Positions 4,305 through 61,353 of a DNA stretch of 64,000 bases are shown piece after piece. Under the pieces are notes generated by a model. It had not been told where the DNA came from. It ran no database searches and saw nothing but the letters and a program-made list of their open reading frames with translations. The position numbers were made by a program, and so were the translations under genes. Each line of letters starts with the position of its first letter. The first letter of the stretch is position 1. This stretch comes from an uncultured Opitutales bacterium (lineage in GTDB: Bacteria > Verrucomicrobiota > Verrucomicrobiia > Opitutales > UBA9783). Where the stretch lies: positions 544-64,543 of the forward strand of contig CALXMI010000052.1 of the NCBI GenBank assembly GCA_944389435.1, in the 5' to 3' direction.

Positions 4305-5453
4305 TTAATTTTGAAAAATCCATTCAAATTGAGGAACGGCAGCTTGTGTCCATTGCTGATGAATTTGCAGTTTTACGTTATCCTTAAAAACAGAAAAATC
4401 GATACCTAATTCTGCGCAACGTTGAGAAACCATTGCCAGGTCGTTTGCATGCAAAGTCGTAATAACCAAATAGCCAGATAGGCTAGAATAAAAGGCAGCT
4501 TGAGCAGTTTCAGTATCTCGAATTTCGCCCCAAACAATAACGTCTGGATCTTGTCGCAAAACGGCATGCATTGCGTCTTGGATCCTGTAATTTTGCTGTG
4601 GATTTATTTCCGTCTGAACAAGCGACGACAGTTCAATTTCTATCGGATCTTCAATCGCAATAATCTTCTTACCCTGTTTATGCAGAAAATCTGCAATTGA
4701 ATAAAGCGTCGTCGTTTTTCCGCTACCGGTTGGCCCTGAAATAAGGATCATGCCTGCTTTAAAGGTTTTACCTTTCTGGGTTAAAGTCTGATATAAGTCA
4801 TCTGGCAGCTGCAACGACGATAACTGACACGGAAAGATCGATTCACTCAATAAACGCAACACAAGGCTTTGTACAACCGGACTCGCCATGTAAGAAAGAC
4901 GACAAAATACATGCATTTGTTGACAGACATATCGAAAATGACCTTCCTGAGCTCGAAGCGTATTGTCAATGTTTAAGGAGGCTGCCGACAAAAAGCTTTT
5001 TAACAAGAGCTCGCCTTGTTCAAGCGGTAACTGCTTTTGCGTAAACACTTGCCGCTGACAACGAAATTGAAGTTGTGCCCCTTGCGATGTTAACGTTAGC
5101 AATACATCCGAAGCTCTTTGCTGTAGTGCTTGAGATAAAATGTCTTCAAATGCATTATGGTCCGACAAGAGCCTAACACCAGAAAGCTTCGATTTATGCT
5201 GACAAGCATACCATCGAGCATCGGTTGCCGCCTCAAGCTTTGTCCAACACACTTGCGGCAAATCCCAAGGCAAAGCAATCGTGAACGTTTGCGGTCCCAT
5301 TTGGTAAAAAGGCACTCGCAGCTTTCTTAATTGCACTAAAGTCGAAAAACGGTCTTCCGCTTTAAGCTTTGTGAGGGCATGAATGATGGTTCTCTTTTGA
5401 ATGGCAGCCTGAACACGTTGCAGGATGCTTGTAATCCGTTTCATAAAAGCCAT
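4305..5453 (-). CDS. Short GspE/PilB/ComGA-type secretion ATPase (copy 1)
   Basis: Walker A 'GPTGSGKTTT', Asp box 'IAIEDPIE', Walker B 'DPDVIVWGEIRD', His box 'LVITTLHAN'. The N-terminal segment looks like T2SSE_N. The protein ends about 44 aa after the His box, so it has no Cys4 zinc domain. In-frame ATGs are at 5453 and 5444, and the track start at 5486 is TTG. Every candidate start overlaps the upstream FmdB gene. Confidence 0.85.
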   Translation of the reverse strand: MAFMKRITSILQRVQAAIQKRTIIHALTKLKAEDRFSTLVQLRKLRVPFYQMGPQTFTIALPWDLPQVCWTKLEAATDARWYACQHKSKLSGVRLLSDHNAFEDILSQALQQRASDVLLTLTSQGAQLQFRCQRQVFTQKQLPLEQGELLLKSFLSAASLNIDNTLRAQEGHFRYVCQQMHVFCRLSYMASPVVQSLVLRLLSESIFPCQLSSLQLPDDLYQTLTQKGKTFKAGMILISGPTGSGKTTTLYSIADFLHKQGKKIIAIEDPIEIELSSLVQTEINPQQNYRIQDAMHAVLRQDPDVIVWGEIRDTETAQAAFYSSLSGYLVITTLHANDLAMVSQRCAELGIDFSVFKDNVKLQIHQQWTQAAVPQFEWIFQN

Positions 5454-5607
5454 GTCCTTTAAAGATGATACCCGAACCTGCTCCAATACACTTCTTCAAA
5501 GCAGGTTTGTTGCATTGTGGACAAATGGTCTTCGCGGGCTCACTGATGGAATGAAAAATCTCAAACTTTTTTCCACACTCAAGACAAATGTAATCATAAG
5601 TTGGCAT
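5362..5607 (-). CDS. FmdB-family zinc-ribbon protein
   Basis: 81 aa. 'MPTYDYICLECGKKFE...CPQCN' (CxxC...CxxC), followed by 'GIIFKGHGFYETDY'. Confidence 0.85.
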   Translation of the reverse strand: MPTYDYICLECGKKFEIFHSISEPAKTICPQCNKPALKKCIGAGSGIIFKGHGFYETDYKHPATCSGCHSKENHHSCPHKA

Positions 5608-5867
5608 ACGATCATTCTACAACACCTCCTTTTTTATTTTGCAAGAATAAACAAAATGTTTTTTGAGCTAAAACAACCCATATTCACAGATAAATCACCG
5701 CAAAATAGTTTCTATTTGCATGAGCAATACTCCTGTCTGCCAAAATTTTCTCTGTTTACATCTAAGATTTTGCAAAAAAGTTATCGATACAGGTGATCTT
5801 TAAGGAAAATTCATTTTTCCCATGGACAAATCAAAAATTTTAACTACATACTAGGACTGGATACATT

Positions 5868-7376
5868 ATGCTTTCTATTATCGATTCGGGTAGTTTACAT
5901 GGGATAGACGCACTTCCTATTCAAGTGGAGGTCAATACAGGAGAGCGCGGTGAATTAAAATGGGTTATCGTCGGTTTGCCAGACGCAGCTGTTAAAGAGT
6001 CCCAAAACCGTGTTTTTTCCGCATTGGGCAACTGTGGATTTATGCTGCCTATTTCTCGAACAACCATCAACTTGGCTCCTGGCGACTTGCGCAAAGTCGG
6101 GCCCATTTATGATCTTCCTATCGCCTTAGCCATTATCTCGGCAACACAACAGGCTGATCTTTCGCTTGCTTCTGACTTTTTAATCGCCGGAGAGCTCAGT
6201 CTTTCGGGGAAATTGCGATTTATCCCTGGAGCGTTTAACTTCGCACTTTTAGCTAAGAAAATGGGTAAAAAAGGCGTCATTTTGCCTTTAGAGTGCGCCC
6301 ATTTGGCAACCTACGTAGAAGGTATCGATGTCTATGGCATGGAACATCTAAGCGATTGTGTTGCGTTTCTAAAGCGAACAAAGACCGTTGAGCCTCTGAA
6401 GATTCCAACACAAGAAAGCACGCCTTTAATTACGAACGACTTACAAGCCATCCATGGTCAGCAAATCCTAAAAAGAGTCGTTGAGATCGCCGTTGCAGGC
6501 AATCATAATCTGTTGATGATGGGCCCTCCTGGATGTGGCAAATCGATGATAGCCAAATGTATTCCCGACTTAATGCCCACGCCTACATTGGACGAATGGC
6601 TCGAAATATTGAAGATTCAAAGCGCCTGCGGTCTGCATCCAGAAACCTCTCAACGACGACGTCCTTTTCGCTCACCTCATCACAATGTAAGTGACGCAGG
6701 GCTTATTGGTGGTGGCATTATTCCACAACCCGGCGAAATTTCTTTGGCTCACGGTGGCGTCCTTTTTCTAGATGAATTGCCTGAGTTCAAACGTTCTGTT
6801 CTGGAAATGCTGAGGCAGCCGCTTGAAAACGGACAAGTTTCTATTGTTCGTTCTAATGGAAAGCTAACATTTCCTTGTCAAACACTTTGTATTGCCGCGA
6901 TGAACCCGTGTCCTTGTGGCTATTTCGGCAATCACCAGCGTCGTTGTACCTGCTCACAGCGGCAAATTCAACAATATCGTTCGCGCATAAGCGGGCCTTT
7001 AATGGATCGTTTTGATTTGCAACTGGACGTTCAACCGGTTGACTTATCCTCCTTTCGAGAGTCCACACCCAAAGGACCTTCGTCGGCTGAAGTAAAAAAG
7101 CGCATTGTATCGGCTCGTAAACTACAAATGGAACGAAGCCATAGTTGTAACGCATACTTATCTGCAGGCCAAATTGAGGCCACCTGTCAGTGCTCACAAG
7201 CGCATCTGGTTTGGTTGCAAAACGCTTGTCAACAGTTACAATTGTCCGCTCGGGCTTATCATAAAGTCCTAAAAATTGCACGTACGATAGCCGATCTTGA
7301 AGCTAGTTCCTCGGTTGAGCAAAAGCATCTTATGGAAGCTATGCAGTACCGCTGTCTCGATCGATCGTGGAAATAG
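5868..7376 (+). CDS. comM: YifB/ComM Mg-chelatase-like AAA+ ATPase
   Basis: 502 aa. Walker A 'GPPGCGKSM', Walker B 'VLFLDELPEF', and a typical N-terminal Lon-like domain 'LHGIDALPIQVEV'. Confidence 0.92.
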   Translation: MLSIIDSGSLHGIDALPIQVEVNTGERGELKWVIVGLPDAAVKESQNRVFSALGNCGFMLPISRTTINLAPGDLRKVGPIYDLPIALAIISATQQADLSLASDFLIAGELSLSGKLRFIPGAFNFALLAKKMGKKGVILPLECAHLATYVEGIDVYGMEHLSDCVAFLKRTKTVEPLKIPTQESTPLITNDLQAIHGQQILKRVVEIAVAGNHNLLMMGPPGCGKSMIAKCIPDLMPTPTLDEWLEILKIQSACGLHPETSQRRRPFRSPHHNVSDAGLIGGGIIPQPGEISLAHGGVLFLDELPEFKRSVLEMLRQPLENGQVSIVRSNGKLTFPCQTLCIAAMNPCPCGYFGNHQRRCTCSQRQIQQYRSRISGPLMDRFDLQLDVQPVDLSSFRESTPKGPSSAEVKKRIVSARKLQMERSHSCNAYLSAGQIEATCQCSQAHLVWLQNACQQLQLSARAYHKVLKIARTIADLEASSSVEQKHLMEAMQYRCLDRSWK

Positions 7377-56001: not shown

Positions 56002-56031
56002 GTCAGCTAAAAGCCGGCTGAAGGTGCCGGC
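56002..56031 (-). promoter_or_regulatory. GC hairpin plus U-tract on the minus strand within the long rpsB upstream region (candidate attenuator/terminator)
   Basis: GCCGGC (56026-31) / GCCGGC (56013-18) with a 7-nt loop. On the minus strand it is followed by 'ttttagctgac'. Confidence 0.35.
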
Positions 56032-56342
56032 GACCTCTCTTTATCTCTTTATTGACCTCCTTTACACCACGCTCACACTCCAACGCTTCTTCTATCACAG
56101 ACATTTCCAGACTCAATTTTCCAAAACTAAAGCTATATTCCATCTCAAAGAGGAACGCTTACTGAAATCCTTTTCTTTGCATCTTTGGATGTCTAATTCT
56201 GTCAGTAATCTATTTGTTGGAGCTTTCGAAGGAACGTGATCCATATTCTTGTATCTCGCAAAAATTCTCACAAAAACACTACCGTATTCTAAAAAATCAC
56301 CCAACTGCGCAACAACCTTCCTTAGAAAAAAAGTTGCAATAT

Positions 56343-57755
56343 GTGCGTAAATCCTTTACTTTAGAGTCTGTGAAGGCGTATCGAAACCTATTAATCTTGC
56401 CTGCGTTTTGTTGTTTGCCCCTAGTTTTATCGGCCAGTAACAACGAACGAAGGTGGAATTTTTGGATAGAAAAAAGGACGACGCCTGACGAAACTCAATC
56501 GTTTGTTCGGCCCATTGGCGCCAGTTATGAGACAAAAGAGCGAATCGAGAATTTCTTTTTTTATCCTTTTGGCTGGGAATATCGTCAGCCCGATCGTCGT
56601 TACGCTTCTGCTATATTTAGCCTTGTTCAGTACGATTACCATAACGGCCCAACCCCTTACCGCGAAGGGAAGGTTTTTCCTTTTGTTTACTTTAAAAAAG
56701 GCGTAAACAAAGAAGCTGATTATGCAGCTGTTTGGCCTTTAGGTGGAACCGTCAAACCTTTCTTGGGATGCGACCAAATTAGCTGGTTCATGTGGCCCCT
56801 ATGGGTAAAAACTCAGAACAAAGGTGTCGTAAGCCGCTGGATGCCTTGGCCGTTTATTAATTGGCGTAAGGGTGACCACTGTGGTTTTGGATTTTACCCA
56901 CTTGGCGGTCATTTTTATAAAAAAGACGAATTCGACGAACGTTACTTTTTATGGCCTCTGGGATACCACCATAACCATTGGAAGCAAAACACCTACAAAT
57001 GTGGATTTCTGCCATTTTACACTTACGAAAAAAGTCCTAACGTAAAAGACCTATCGATCGTTTGGCCGTTTTGGGGCCATCGAATTGAAAACAAGCCTCA
57101 TTATGAAGAACATCGCCTTTTATGGCCATTATGGGTCCAAGGACGAGGCGAATTACGTACGGTAAAACGCTGGGCGCCTTTCTATACATTTTCAGAGATT
57201 AAAAACGATTCAAATTACCAAAAGACTTGGTATGCTTGGCCCTTCTTTAAGTTTCTATCTTGGACCGAACATGGCGTAAATATTCAACAGGAACAATTTT
57301 TGTATTTTTTATTTTGGCATCAAGAACAGTTCCATGCCCAAACGGATGAATTTTTAGGCAGCAAGACCCACGTCTGGCCCCTCTATTCTTATTGGGACGA
57401 TGGTCATGGACATAAACAATTGCAATCTTTGAGCCCCTTTGAGGTGTTTTTTCCCGGTAACAAAGTCGTACGCGACGTTTATACGCCCTTATTTACCCTT
57501 TTTCGATACGAAGAAAAGGATGGTTCCATACAACAATCTTGCTTGTTTAAGCTATTTCAGGAGAAAAGAGATAAAGAGGGCACAAGCCTGCATTGTCCAC
57601 TTTGTTTAGACTATAAAAATACTCGGCAAGAAAAAAGCTTTTCAATTTTAAAAGGTTTATTAGAATATAAGAAAGCCGGCAGTGAAAAGACGTTTCGGTT
57701 GTTTTGGATTCCGTTAGGAAAGGCAAAAATCGTAAAGGATAACAGGCTGTTATGA
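56343..57755 (+). CDS. Secreted aromatic-Pro-Leu/Phe repeat protein (~19-residue period), unknown family, translationally coupled to mlaE
   Basis: The track ORF is 56214..57755 (TTG), and there is no ATG in the first ~190 codons. A GTG at 56343 gives a signal-like 'MRKSFTLESVKAYRNLLILPAFCCLPLVLSA/SNN'. About 16 motifs of the type (W/Y/F)P(L/F) follow: FYPFGW, VFPFVY, VWPLGG, MWPLWV, PWPFIN, FYPLGG, LWPLGY, FLPFYT, VWPFWG, LWPLWV, WAPFYT, AWPFFK, VWPLYS and others. The stop overlaps the mlaE ATG (ATGA at 57752-55). Confidence 0.75.
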   Translation: MRKSFTLESVKAYRNLLILPAFCCLPLVLSASNNERRWNFWIEKRTTPDETQSFVRPIGASYETKERIENFFFYPFGWEYRQPDRRYASAIFSLVQYDYHNGPTPYREGKVFPFVYFKKGVNKEADYAAVWPLGGTVKPFLGCDQISWFMWPLWVKTQNKGVVSRWMPWPFINWRKGDHCGFGFYPLGGHFYKKDEFDERYFLWPLGYHHNHWKQNTYKCGFLPFYTYEKSPNVKDLSIVWPFWGHRIENKPHYEEHRLLWPLWVQGRGELRTVKRWAPFYTFSEIKNDSNYQKTWYAWPFFKFLSWTEHGVNIQQEQFLYFLFWHQEQFHAQTDEFLGSKTHVWPLYSYWDDGHGHKQLQSLSPFEVFFPGNKVVRDVYTPLFTLFRYEEKDGSIQQSCLFKLFQEKRDKEGTSLHCPLCLDYKNTRQEKSFSILKGLLEYKKAGSEKTFRLFWIPLGKAKIVKDNRLL

Positions 57756-58495
57756 AAGTATTAAAAGACTGGCAATATGCGTTCGTTTTGTTGTGGCAGA
57801 CGTTTAAGGAGTTGCGTTATTTGCCGCGTCAATGGCAACGTTGTATTGAACACAGCTGCAACATGGGCTACAAAACCTTCCCAATTGTTGGAATTTTGAG
57901 CCTATTTATGGGCGGCATCCTAGCTCTACAGACCGGTTACAGCCTGAGCAATTTGCCGGGAGCACAAACCTTTTTAGGCAGTATCGTAGGACTATCCATG
58001 TGTCGAGAATTGGGGCCCTTAATGACCGCATTCTTGCTCACTGGTAGGGTCGGTTCGGCCATCACGGCAGAGTTAGCTTCCATGTCCGCCTACCAAGAGA
58101 TTGACGCTCTGAAGACAATGAATCTTTCACCGACGCGTTTGCTTGTCATGCCACGCGTCCTGGGAGGATTATTAATGATGCCCTTATTGACCATGTTCTC
58201 AAATGTTTTGGGTTGGATAGGCGGCTGGTTTGTTGTAAAAACGGTAGACGTTATTTCCATTGACGGAGGTACTTACTGGAGGAGCTTACAACAATTTGTC
58301 GACTTGGACAGCCTAAATGACGGCCTTGTTAAAGCAGAAATCTTTGCCCTAACCATCATTCTTATGAGCTGTTCCATCGGCCTCAGGACCTTTGGCGGTC
58401 CTCGAGAAATAGGCGCATCCGTAACCAGTACACTTGTGCAGACAATGATCGCCATTTTAACCTTAGATTACTTTGTAACCAAACTCTTGTTATAG
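57752..58495 (+). CDS. mlaE: MlaE-type ABC permease
   Basis: 247 aa with the MlaE/YrbE layout ('CRELGPLMTAFLLTGRVGSAITAELASM'). Confidence 0.9.
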   Translation: MKVLKDWQYAFVLLWQTFKELRYLPRQWQRCIEHSCNMGYKTFPIVGILSLFMGGILALQTGYSLSNLPGAQTFLGSIVGLSMCRELGPLMTAFLLTGRVGSAITAELASMSAYQEIDALKTMNLSPTRLLVMPRVLGGLLMMPLLTMFSNVLGWIGGWFVVKTVDVISIDGGTYWRSLQQFVDLDSLNDGLVKAEIFALTIILMSCSIGLRTFGGPREIGASVTSTLVQTMIAILTLDYFVTKLLL

Positions 58496-58497
58496 AC

Positions 58498-59283
58498 ATG
58501 CCCATTTTTGATCAACATCGTAAAGCTCCTGTTTCCATCAAAATTAATGGAGTGTGTAAAGCTTTTGGCGAACGCATCGTGTTGAATCAACTGAATTTAG
58601 AGGTAAATCCAGGAGAAATTTTTGTACTCATGGGACCCAGTGGTGTCGGCAAAAGTGTTTTTTTAAAGCTGCTTGCAGGCTTAGACCGTCCAGATGCGGG
58701 CCACATTACCATTAACAGAACGTCCCTGGATCGCGTAAAGAAGACCAACAAATACGTTCTAGGATTGGTTTTTCAAGCGGGCGCCTTGTTCAATTCTATA
58801 TCCGTTTTTGACAACTTAGCCCTGTATTTTCGCGAACACGCCCTATACGATGAAGCCGAAATTGAAAAGCGTATTTTTCAAGTTTTACACATGCTCAATT
58901 TGCAAAACACAGCCTTTTTGATGCCTTCCAACCTCTCTGGCGGGATGAAAAAGCGTGTCGCCTTAGCGCGCGGACTTCTTATGGAGCCTGACGTCTTGTT
59001 GTTTGACGAACCCACATCCGAATTGGACCCTATGACGGCCGCATCCATTATTGAACTTATTGGGTTTGTCAATAAAAACTTAGGCATGACCACCGTTATT
59101 GTGTCTCATGATATTATCCTCGCTAAAAACATAGGTACGCATATCGGCGTGATTCAAAATGGAAAAATTGATGAAGTCTACACGGCTCAAACCATTATGT
59201 GTGCCAAAAATGAATATGTTAAAAATTTTCTAAACCCAACCATTAACCTGGAACATCCTAACTTCCTTTCTTTGTTATCATGA
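58498..59283 (+). CDS. mlaF: MlaF-type ABC ATPase
   Basis: Walker A 'GPSGVGKS', signature 'LSGGMKKRVALAR', Walker B 'LLFDEPTS'. Confidence 0.92.
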   Translation: MPIFDQHRKAPVSIKINGVCKAFGERIVLNQLNLEVNPGEIFVLMGPSGVGKSVFLKLLAGLDRPDAGHITINRTSLDRVKKTNKYVLGLVFQAGALFNSISVFDNLALYFREHALYDEAEIEKRIFQVLHMLNLQNTAFLMPSNLSGGMKKRVALARGLLMEPDVLLFDEPTSELDPMTAASIIELIGFVNKNLGMTTVIVSHDIILAKNIGTHIGVIQNGKIDEVYTAQTIMCAKNEYVKNFLNPTINLEHPNFLSLLS

Positions 59284-60275
59284 AGATCAAATATGACAGT
59301 ATTCGCGTAACCTTATTTACGATTTTTGGAATCGCCTTAATGTTCATTGTCTATTCAGCCTTGAATCGACTTTCAGTAACCAAGCATGACAGTTACAATA
59401 TTAAAGCATTATTTTCCGATTTAAAGCAGCTTCAAATCGGTGACGATGTGCGCGTAGCGGGTGTACGTGTCGGAAGCGTTACCAACACCTCTCTCAATCG
59501 AAATTTAGCCGTAGCGACTTTAAGCGTTGAAAAGCGCTTTAGCATACCTGAAGATTCGGTCGCAACCATTCTAATGTCTGGCTTATTGGGAGCCAATTAT
59601 GTTTCCATTATTCCAGGAACCTCGCAAAAAAATATTACTGATAACAGCTATCTTGACACGCAAAAAGCAGTCGACATCTATTCTGTAGTTAGAAAATTTA
59701 GTTCTATCGGCGACCGACTCGATCGTGTTTTATCAAGTTTTGACGGCAGTGGCGACGATATTGCTACGGAAGGAAAGCCTACGTTGTTCCAGGACATTGC
59801 TGATTTTGTTAGAAACAACAAAGACAAAATGAGTCAAGTCATCGACGACTGCTCTGTCATTACCCATAAAATTGCTCAAGGAGAAGGAACCTTAGGCCGC
59901 ATCATCCATGAAGACAAAGCCTATAACGATTTGATAGAAATGATGGATTCCATCAAGGTTGCCGCCCAAAAAGTCGACGGCATGATAAAATCTTTTCAAG
60001 GCGTAGCTGATGATATAAGACAAGGCAACGGTCTGCTAGGAAAATTGATGTACGATCCAAAAGTTGAACAATCTTTTAGTAAAATTATCAAAAACATCGA
60101 AAACTTTTCTGGCAAATTGAACAACGACAACAGCACCTTAGGCCGTATCATTACAAGCGACTCTCTGTACAAACAAGCTGAATCCGCCATTGAAAAGGTT
60201 GAAAAAGCCGTCGACAGTGTTGCCAACTCAGGACCTATTACAGCCGTCGGAGCAGCCGCAAACGCCCTCTTCTAG
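59280..60275 (+). CDS. mlaD: MlaD/MCE-domain protein with an extended C-terminal region
   Basis: N-terminal TM, MCE core 'GDDVRVAGVRVGSVT', and a long helical C-terminus with repeated '(E/N)GTLGRII' and 'GLLGKLM' motifs. Confidence 0.85.
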   Translation: MKIKYDSIRVTLFTIFGIALMFIVYSALNRLSVTKHDSYNIKALFSDLKQLQIGDDVRVAGVRVGSVTNTSLNRNLAVATLSVEKRFSIPEDSVATILMSGLLGANYVSIIPGTSQKNITDNSYLDTQKAVDIYSVVRKFSSIGDRLDRVLSSFDGSGDDIATEGKPTLFQDIADFVRNNKDKMSQVIDDCSVITHKIAQGEGTLGRIIHEDKAYNDLIEMMDSIKVAAQKVDGMIKSFQGVADDIRQGNGLLGKLMYDPKVEQSFSKIIKNIENFSGKLNNDNSTLGRIITSDSLYKQAESAIEKVEKAVDSVANSGPITAVGAAANALF

Positions 60276-60318: not shown

Positions 60319-61353
60319 TCAAGGCTTTACCGTTAACGATTTTACCTCATCTTTTCGCTCGTGAAATTCAAAAAATTGTTTCAGTGGAAAAATTTTTTCT
60401 TTGTTTAAAAACTGAATACGAACCGCATCATCGACCCATTTTTGAATGCTTACCTCCTCCACATGGGTTTCTAGGGAAAGATTTTCTAGGGTCTTTACAA
60501 CAAAATCGACAGGAAAGTCCAAATGGGTTTGGTATTTCAATTCCTGGTTTATGAGCTCTGCGGCCTGCTTTTTATTGTTCACAATCCACTGTGTAAGGTC
60601 TTCATGCAAACGTGTAATAGCCTGTCTTAAGGTTTTATTTTCACAGAAATTTTTGGAACCAACCAATAAGGTTGTCCAATTATCCTTGTCGTAGAAAAAC
60701 AATTGGCCTTTGGCTTCTTCTATGAGTCGAGACAGCCATGGCTCTATTGTCCAAACACCATCCACTTGCTTACGTTGAAACAACCTAAGCTGATCTGGGT
60801 TGGCCGTTGGCAACATAAACGTCTTCGTATAACCCTGCTTTTGAAACCATGCACGACAAGCAACATCCTGTGTATTTCCAAACTGGGGCGTTGCAATTTT
60901 CTTGTTTTCCCAACATTCGTCATTTTTCGTTGAAAAATTTGGCTGCAAAACAAGTCCCGATCCGCCTTTTACAGCACCATCAATAAGGTAAACTTCCTTA
61001 CCTTTTGTCCGCATATACAGATTAACAGCAGGACTTGGCCCAACATACGACAGGTCTATATTTCCCGTTAGCAAGCACTCCATGGCCAATGGCCCCGCAT
61101 TAAAACGACTCCATTGAAGCGTTACCTCTTCAGGAAGGTATTTTTTGAAATCAAACGAATACGAACTTGCCGACCCTAACCGCATAAGCGCTTGAAGGAC
61201 GAGTGCTTGTGGATGTGTTAAATTTGGGAAAAAACCCACTCGCAACACCTTCGTCTTTAATGTGGCGTTCGGTAACTTCGAGACCTCTAGAAACATACAA
61301 TAGAAGCCCATTACAAAGAAAAACAAAAGCCTCACGAGGACAGTTTTAAACAA
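60319..61353 (-). CDS. Orphan periplasmic substrate-binding protein (NMT1/SsuA/TauA-like)
   Basis: 'LRVGFFPNLTHPQALV', 'FNAGPLAMECLLTGNIDLSYVGPSPA', 'KKIATPQFGNTQD'. No permease or ATPase gene is adjacent. Confidence 0.7.
   Translation of the reverse strand: MFKTVLVRLLFFFVMGFYCMFLEVSKLPNATLKTKVLRVGFFPNLTHPQALVLQALMRLGSASSYSFDFKKYLPEEVTLQWSRFNAGPLAMECLLTGNIDLSYVGPSPAVNLYMRTKGKEVYLIDGAVKGGSGLVLQPNFSTKNDECWENKKIATPQFGNTQDVACRAWFQKQGYTKTFMLPTANPDQLRLFQRKQVDGVWTIEPWLSRLIEEAKGQLFFYDKDNWTTLLVGSKNFCENKTLRQAITRLHEDLTQWIVNNKKQAAELINQELKYQTHLDFPVDFVVKTLENLSLETHVEEVSIQKWVDDAVRIQFLNKEKIFPLKQFFEFHERKDEVKSLTVKP

Follow-up and report, generated by a model that had tools for sequence, protein, structure and literature searches.

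The outer-membrane partners known for MCE systems are limited to porin-like barrels, MlaA-like lipoproteins and PqiC-like lipoproteins (PMC13631591), and for the Let and Mce1 systems no outer-membrane component is known (PMC13631591, PMC10665443). At the distal end of MCE bridges, the way in which phospholipids get into or out of the outer membrane is still an open question. The described systems closest to the one considered here are PA3211-PA3214 of Pseudomonas aeruginosa and MpcEFDA of Brucella abortus, each combining an MlaE-like permease, an ATP-binding cassette (ABC) ATPase and a single-MCE needle protein of ~310-330 amino acids (aa) with one extra exported partner, a PqiC-like lipoprotein whose gene comes last (PMC13631591, PMC12436622). 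In PA3213-PA3214 and in PqiB-PqiC the C-terminal peptide of the MCE protein docks in a hydrophobic groove of the outer-membrane partner. Deletion of this peptide from PA3213 or PqiB abolishes partner binding, the critical residues being E309/F310/P312 and D538/P539/P541, respectively, and the tail sequence has been proposed to set partner specificity (PMC13631591). In Veillonella parvula, a long MlaD fused to an outer-membrane barrel forms a trans-envelope MlaEFD "bridge" that dispenses with MlaA and MlaC (Grasekamp et al. 2023). The MlaD outer-membrane barrel is completely absent from bacteria of the Planctomycetes-Verrucomicrobia-Chlamydiae (PVC) and Fibrobacteres-Chlorobi-Bacteroidetes (FCB) groups, for which the involvement of unidentified proteins was raised as a possibility (Grasekamp et al., PMC10665443). 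Since the MlaD of PVC bacteria has no such barrel, a partner on the outer-membrane side is missing there (PMC10665443). Here we examine a gene that precedes mlaEFD in a 64,000-nucleotide stretch of an uncultured Opitutales bacterium (Verrucomicrobiota; contig CALXMI010000052.1, positions 544 to 64,543; hereafter "the window"). Its protein, encoded by the forward-strand open reading frame (ORF) 56214..57755, is called X below, and its residues are numbered from the GTG codon at 56370 (461-aa form) unless stated otherwise.

Linkage of X to mla genes

The operon in the window consists only of X, mlaE, mlaF and mlaD, all on the forward strand and joined by 4-bp overlaps or 2-bp gaps. The stop codon of X (TGA) and the start codon of mlaE (ATG) share the ATGA at 57752..57755, an overlap that had already been seen by the earlier note and that indicates translational coupling. 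mlaE (57752..58495) encodes an MlaE-family ABC permease of 247 aa (PF02405, E = 6.5e-66; TIGR00056). It is followed by a gene for an MlaF-like ABC ATPase of 261 aa (58498..59283; PF00005, E = 6.6e-32), which matches the MlaF model NF008809 at E = 6e-49, under its curated cut-off, and by mlaD (59280..60275; PF02470, E = 2e-17), whose product of 331 aa is of the long needle type, with an N-terminal transmembrane segment, one MCE domain and a needle of ~190 residues. Permease, ATPase and MCE protein are thus encoded together, which makes this an Mla/MCE ABC transporter operon. The lack of MlaA/VacJ-like, MlaB and MlaC genes, also remarked on earlier, holds for the whole operon, where there is no PqiC-like gene either; a PqiC-like (ABC_trans_aux) lipoprotein gene was found in none of the 12 contexts that we read gene by gene.

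The supposition that homologs of X would be linked to mla genes in other genomes as well is borne out. We counted linkage at the best 80 GTDB loci, two of which end right after X and thus leave 78 informative loci from Opitutia/Puniceicoccales. mlaE lies directly downstream of X, on the same strand, in 77 of these, and mlaF and mlaD are also seen in 73; at the four loci where they are not visible, the contig stops inside mlaE or mlaF. The same X-mlaE-mlaF-mlaD order is present in Lacunisphaera and in two further Verrucomicrobia contigs. Remote relatives of ordinary length were mla-linked in all seven cases checked, with two gene orders. X comes first in a deltaproteobacterial metagenome-assembled genome (MAG; L086), in an NC10-type contig (L087), in a member of the Omnitrophota (L090) and in L092, whereas it comes last in L088 and L089 (both mlaE-mlaF-mlaD-X) and in a member of the Tectomicrobia (L091, mlaE-mlaD-X). 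Start/stop overlaps of 4-8 bp between X and mlaE recur in L001, L086 and L087. In all three loci where X is encoded last it is a lipoprotein form; the X of L092 also has a lipobox, yet is encoded upstream of mlaE. At two loci a transporter gene of the MMPL/RND family (PF03176) lies directly upstream of X-mlaEFD (L090, 2790-5609; L092, 3296-5968), which hints at a wider lipid-export neighbourhood.

In total, X adjoins needle-type Mla/MCE genes in at least five bacterial phyla. That this linkage survives changes of gene order across phyla speaks strongly for a function shared by X and the mla genes, and we consider it very probable that the transporter has X as one of its dedicated components.

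The X family

X had been described as unrecognised, and no characterised family was matched in Pfam, NCBIfam or PDB. The protein in the window has no Pfam or NCBIfam match, and specifically none to PF04333 or PF05494 (MlaA/VacJ, MlaC). Across 67 family members Pfam returned nothing at E <= 10, PF03886 included, the family profile had no sequence match to PDB chains at E <= 10, and Pfam found no domain fusions in ten longer relatives. Every annotated member is called "hypothetical protein", and full-text literature searches found no description of the family.

The family is nevertheless large. A word-seeded search with X gave 597 clusters at 90% identity, and an exhaustive profile search gave 1,998 clusters at 50% identity with E <= 1e-3, 711 of them at E <= 1e-30; relatives occur in 448 GTDB species genomes, and a search around an NC10 member added a further 1,016 matches. 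The closest relatives come from uncultured gut and rumen Opitutales (Verrucomicrobiota). By source name, members belong to Opitutales, Opitutaceae and Puniceicoccales (Verrucomicrobiota), to Candidatus Methylomirabilis/NC10, Candidatus Omnitrophota and Candidatus Tectomicrobia, to a "Deltaproteobacteria" MAG, and to MAGs labelled Acidoferrum or Sulfotelmatobacter.

The X profile also matches two giant metagenome proteins, in 12 separate stretches of P0234 (1767 aa) and in 9 of P0255 (1402 aa). The hairpin repeat of X, described below, therefore occurs also in another, much longer architecture, and the likeness of P0234 to X is probably at the level of the repeat only.

Repeat motif and predicted fold

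The earlier note had drawn attention to about 16 aromatic-Pro-Leu/Phe motifs, to an extreme richness in Trp, Tyr and Phe, and to a hint of a two-unit super-repeat of ~38 aa, and each of these observations stood up to counting. All 16 listed prolines are present in an x-P-[LFI] context and 11 of them fit the strict pattern [WYF]P[LFI], as against 1.25 +/- 1.09 such motifs (maximum 7) in 20,000 composition-preserving shuffles of X. W, Y and F together make up 21.0% of mature X, compared with 4-12.5% of seven neighbouring proteins, and the proline autocorrelation has a weak peak at lag 38 (0.15). The motif prolines account for 14 of the 25 family-invariant residues.

An AlphaFold2 model of full-length X, built on a 67-sequence alignment, reached a mean pLDDT of 92.2 and a pTM of 0.79; residues 97-300 modelled alone (204 residues) reached 97.1 and 0.81. 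In the full-length model the signal helix is followed, over residues 33-449 (56466..57716, forward strand), by an array of beta-hairpin repeats with ~43-45 strands of 5-8 residues and just two tiny helices. The strands are mostly 5-6 residues long, never more than 8, with tight turns at both ends. Mean-field direct-coupling analysis (DCA), carried out on 300-432 sequences with an effective sequence number (Neff) of 250 and then 312, yielded as its top couplings antiparallel ladders between consecutive strands (z 5-10), centred in turn on the W-P-L/F turns and on polar turns. Long-range signals were at noise level, the sole hint being a coupling of residues 35-63 with 419-439. In the family-averaged hydropathy the two turn types alternate without exception, with ~20 hydrophobic/aromatic turns (W/Y/F-P-L/F and variants) and ~22 polar ones, which are polar/Gly-rich. 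For the X in the window, the summed Wimley-White interfacial energy is -35 kcal/mol for the hydrophobic turns and +44 kcal/mol for the polar ones. In a meander, consecutive turns come to lie at opposite edges, which leaves X with an aromatic edge and a polar edge. Model and couplings together indicate that X is a continuous antiparallel beta-hairpin meander of ~21 hairpins.

Of the folds that the earlier note had offered for checking, namely barrel, propeller and solenoid, a transmembrane barrel is unlikely and a parallel solenoid is excluded, and a canonical propeller appears less favoured. A parallel beta-solenoid could be ruled out since the couplings are antiparallel, with ladders centred on turns, and since DCA of the family gave no parallel i,i+19 signal. 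A "beta-taco" of long bent strands was rejected as well, because ladders centred on the W-P-L turns mean that these are true reverse turns, and so were choline-binding and YD/Rhs repeats, for which there were no Pfam or PDB matches. Foldseek searches brought up no persuasive structural neighbour. In them, full-length X gave template-modelling (TM) scores of at most 0.17 against PDB, and its best matches in BFVD were MORN-repeat proteins (TM 0.25). With the fragment, the top-probability PDB matches (0.98-1.0) were the single-layer G-box sheets of CPAP/SAS-4 (TM 0.26-0.31), and propellers had probabilities of 0.2-0.5 with TM below 0.2. These MORN and G-box matches should be read together with their root-mean-square deviations of 10-23 Å and global TM of only 0.25-0.31.

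The array ends with the strand ...FRLFWIPL, after which X has a short, basic, poorly conserved C-terminal tail, GKAKIVKDNRLL (57717..57752, forward strand; pLDDT 41-54). In about 10% of the family the chain stops right at an aromatic residue (...KFLWISF, ...LWMTF; e.g. P0028, P0032, P0034, P0064 and P0071) and so resembles the beta-signal of outer-membrane proteins, a terminal F, Y or W being found in only 22 of 229 full-length members. In the others the same last strand is followed by a short tail that is basic or Pro/Ala-rich.

Start site, export signal and flanking genes

A non-ATG start, as asserted earlier, is indeed required, since the first in-frame ATG of the ORF is codon 193, while the conservation with homologs begins near codon 85. 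The claim of a signal-like N-terminus needs a correction. There is a Sec-type signal, but its hydrophobic segment occupies residues 53-74 when counted from the TTG at 56214, so that GTG 56370 is a likelier start than this TTG. The same is indicated by the homologs, which, at 447-490 aa, account for only 78-90% of the 513-aa translation. Judging from the sequence, TTG 56214 is probably too far upstream, its first ~52 codons probably being 5' leader rather than protein, and GTG 56370, giving 461 aa, is the more likely start, with TTG 56334 and GTG 56343 as possible alternatives. The public gene call (513 aa, from TTG 56214) takes in the ~52 non-conserved residues before the signal peptide.

From GTG 56370 the predicted signal peptide is MKAYRNLLILPAFCCLPLVLSA (56370..56435, forward strand), with cleavage before SNN, i.e. 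a typical Sec signal with a signal peptidase I-type site (LSA followed by S) and no lipobox. The corresponding N-terminal helix (residues 2-19) has low pLDDT in the AlphaFold2 model. A hydrophobic, signal-like N-terminal segment is present in 322 of 367 full-length family members. A lipobox, searched for as [LVI][ASTVI][GAS]C where the signal peptide ends, is not conserved family-wide, with a lipobox-like match in only 22 of the 367, although five remote representatives (P0215, P0252, P0210, P0225 and P0198) have canonical ones (LVGC, VSGC, VSAC, ASGC and ASAC). Given these signal-like N-termini and the canonical lipoboxes of the remote subclade, X is not a cytoplasmic protein.

The distance from rpsB to the likely start of X is ~680 bp. 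Rfam and promoter scans of this 5' region and of the operon gave no match and no promoter-like site. Public contigs are annotated with a 46-aa minus-strand ORF between rpsB and X (56003-56143), inside whose 3' end lies a terminator-like GC-rich hairpin (GCCGGC...GCCGGC followed by a T run; 56013-56031, minus strand). The operon is flanked by genes on the opposite strand, upstream by rpsB, tsf and leuS, beyond which lie lpxI and a gene for an ArnT/PMT-like glycosyltransferase, and downstream by a gene for an SsuA/NMT1-like substrate-binding protein (60319-61353, minus strand), followed from 61451 on the plus strand by a type II secretion pseudopilin cluster (GspG-like, N_methyl).

The needle and C-terminal tail of MlaD

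The Helical_needle family (PF28544) is faint on the MlaD of the window and clear on its orthologs in precomputed annotation; it is present in every X-linked MlaD. Within the needle (59880-60230 in the window; also in L086-L092) there are repeats of 34 or 41 residues with the motif (G)EGTLGKL(V)xD(D/E)xLY, those of the window being of the GxGTLG(K/R) type. Copies of the repeat found by regular expression number 0-5, and annotated MlaD lengths run from 318 to 396 aa, which suggests that needle length is modular.

The needle is followed by a hydrophobic, Gly/Ala/Val-rich C-terminal tail, GPITAVGAAANALF (60231..60272, forward strand), which we propose as a putative docking peptide. In ~75 Opitutia loci this tail is nearly invariant as GP(I/V)TAVG(V/A)xAxxLF-COOH, with P319 and G324 strictly so, while the rest of MlaD drops to ~33% identity. 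Variants from other X-linked lineages are APLNTLGAAFGILTLF, GPLSIIGIGIQALGAF, TPITTLGVIGAAAIQ, TPVTVLGVVLGAVLAR, GPLSVLGIAANSLF, TPVTILGTLLGFVIR and GPLSVIGLLFNGLF, and the type [GT]P[ILV]xx[ILV]G...F is kept in every X-linked MlaD examined. The tail is unlike the critical residues of PA3213 and PqiB, which would fit a different partner.

A proposed role for X and alternative explanations

The earlier suggestion that X is a novel exported envelope partner of an MCE/ABC transporter gains support from its mla-linked homologs, from the signal segments of most members and from the failure to match any characterised family. As to what such a partner does, the reading we favour, at a probability of about 0.6, is that X acts as an outer-membrane-proximal docking partner, i.e. 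a receptor or anchor, of the needle tip. X would be exported by Sec, its signal peptide being cleaved in the organism of the window and a lipid anchor being attached in some other lineages, and would fold as one long antiparallel meander of ~21 hairpins, with the W/Y/F-Pro-Leu/Phe turns all on one edge and the polar turns all on the other. An MlaE2F2 ABC module would sit in the inner membrane and hexameric MlaD, an MCE ring continued by a helical needle, would cross the periplasm. At the outer membrane, on its inner face, X would then receive or anchor the tip of the needle, for which it would probably bind the hydrophobic, conserved C-terminal tails of MlaD, and its aromatic edge would probably touch the lipid leaflet. 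In function it would thus correspond to the rings of PqiC-like lipoproteins in PqiABC, PA3211-PA3214 and the Brucella Mpc system, although its fold is unrelated. We infer the outer-membrane location, the contact between tail and X, the insertion of the aromatic edge into the membrane, and the direction and substrate of transport.

A more specific and tentative version, which we regard as possible but doubtful, is that X represents a structural class of its own, the fourth among the outer-membrane partners of MCE proteins: a single-chain, single-layer ribbon of ~43 strands, curled as a collar round the MlaD needle tip, with ~20 W/Y/F-Pro-Leu/Phe turns dipping into the outer membrane's inner leaflet, and with the six MlaD tails captured. 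If true, this would explain how the long MlaD proteins without a barrel, found in PVC bacteria, NC10, Omnitrophota and others, get as far as the outer membrane.

Several observations weigh against a docking role. The X of the window and most Opitutia and NC10 members have neither a lipid anchor nor a clear beta-signal for the beta-barrel assembly machinery (BAM), and nothing in the sequences of these proteins forces an outer-membrane location. At one of the 78 loci, L024 (Verrucomicrobia bacterium GWF2_51_19), X (4872-6293) lies between mutS and pheS with no adjacent mla gene, and the giant P0234 has no mla neighbours and lies among glycoside hydrolase genes. Taxonomic labels of MAGs may be imprecise, the survey of the tail motif covers X-linked MlaD proteins only, and the overall shape of X may be a ring, a spiral or an open ribbon.

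Other explanations may therefore be considered, and we take them in falling order of likelihood. X could be a soluble periplasmic protein that binds lipids or captures substrate, like MlaC or a substrate-binding protein, and loads or unloads cargo at the MCE needle. The absence of a lipobox from the X of the window and from most Opitutia/NC10 members would agree with this, as would the lack of MlaC in the operon and the very aromatic composition of X, whose strongly hydrophobic edge could hold acyl chains. We nevertheless consider it unlikely, since remote members are lipoproteins, with those whose genes follow mlaD occupying the slot of PqiC, a needle-type MlaD is a continuous conduit that should make a shuttle needless (PMC10665443, PMC13631591), and Foldseek recognised no fold with an enclosed pocket. 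Somewhat less probable still is a sheath, collar or assembly scaffold that runs along the helical needle or aids its passage through the peptidoglycan, having no contact with the outer membrane. The closest local analogues of X, MORN arrays and CPAP G-box sheets, do bind helices or extended peptides on the face of the sheet, and the needle does vary in length by 34/41-aa repeats, but a scaffold leaves the one-sided aromatic W-P-L/F edge and the lipid anchor of remote members unexplained, and the best-conserved element of MlaD is its extreme C-terminal tail rather than the surface of the needle.

An integral outer-membrane beta-barrel, a porin-like lipid portal comparable to OmpC/F with MlaA or to the barrel of Veillonella MlaD, would be in line with an all-beta, aromatic-rich protein with a Sec signal, and with the ~10% of members that end in ...LWISF or ...LWMTF, much like a BAM beta-signal. 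Yet strands of 5-6 residues, and at most 8, are too short for a bilayer, for which ~9 or more are needed; moreover, the hydrophobicity is gathered at one edge instead of along the strands, in most members the last strand is followed by a polar tail, and no porin or other outer-membrane protein obtained a good Foldseek score, so that a barrel appears very improbable. Least of all do we expect X to be only a co-transcribed protein, for instance a surface or envelope structural protein, that plays no part in the transporter. The X of L024 and the genomic setting of P0234 are what one would predict in that case, but linkage at 77 of 78 Opitutia loci and in 7 of 7 remote relatives of ordinary length, in two gene orders and with frequent start/stop overlaps, is hard to reconcile with it. 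Docking of the needle tip thus remains our preferred role for X, and the family, together with the matching conserved MlaD tail, offers a concrete candidate for the missing outer-membrane component, which lends itself to direct tests in Lacunisphaera, Oleiharenicola, Opitutus and similar cultured hosts.

Comparison with known systems

Taken as a whole, the genes encode a needle-type MCE ABC transporter like PA3211-14/Mpc, except that X, from an unrelated family, stands in for the PqiC-like lipoprotein. Inner-membrane engine, single-MCE needle protein and one extra exported partner in the operon are alike, a functionally important C-terminal MCE peptide is known from PA3211-14/Mpc, and the last position taken there by the gene for the PqiC-like lipoprotein is the one that X has in L088, L089 and L091. 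In contrast, X is not PqiC-like, having no match to PF03886 and no sequence match in PDB; it is an all-beta hairpin repeat of ~440 residues as opposed to an alpha/beta domain of ~180 residues, and in Opitutia its gene comes first and it carries no lipid anchor. The tails differ as well, that of X-linked MlaD being Gly/Ala/Val-rich and usually ending in Phe, unlike those of PA3213 and PqiB. PqiC itself, in PqiABC, is an octameric toroid of small subunits; its role as outer-membrane-proximal receptor for the needle tip, through C-terminal peptides, is the one proposed here for X, whereas fold and size are unrelated and the Pqi system has PqiA instead of an ABC module.

The proteobacterial Mla system, with MlaA (VacJ)-OmpC/F and MlaC, shares the MlaFED-type inner-membrane engine and presumably a similar role in handling envelope lipids. 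However, MlaA is a lipoprotein of alpha-helical fold and MlaC a soluble shuttle of alpha/beta fold, X matches neither, and with an MlaD of the long needle type, as in the window, a shuttle is not needed. In the latter respect the system resembles the Veillonella parvula bridge, but where V. parvula has its barrel fused to MlaD, a separate protein appears to supply the outer-membrane-side function here. Local likeness of X to MORN arrays, to the TCP10 (G-box) domain of CPAP/SAS-4 and to the central sheet of OspA lies in short antiparallel hairpins within one aromatic-rich sheet. This is a likeness of architecture alone, as PF02493 and PF07202 are not matched, there is no sequence kinship to MORN or TCP10, and TM reaches only 0.25-0.31, and X is set apart from all these sheets by its W-P-L/F turn motif, its strictly hydrophobic edge and its setting in the bacterial envelope. 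X would add a rare case, for bacteria, of a single-layer beta-sheet that is very long and aromatic along one edge only. Thus, X is a new protein family with an unusual fold within a known kind of system.

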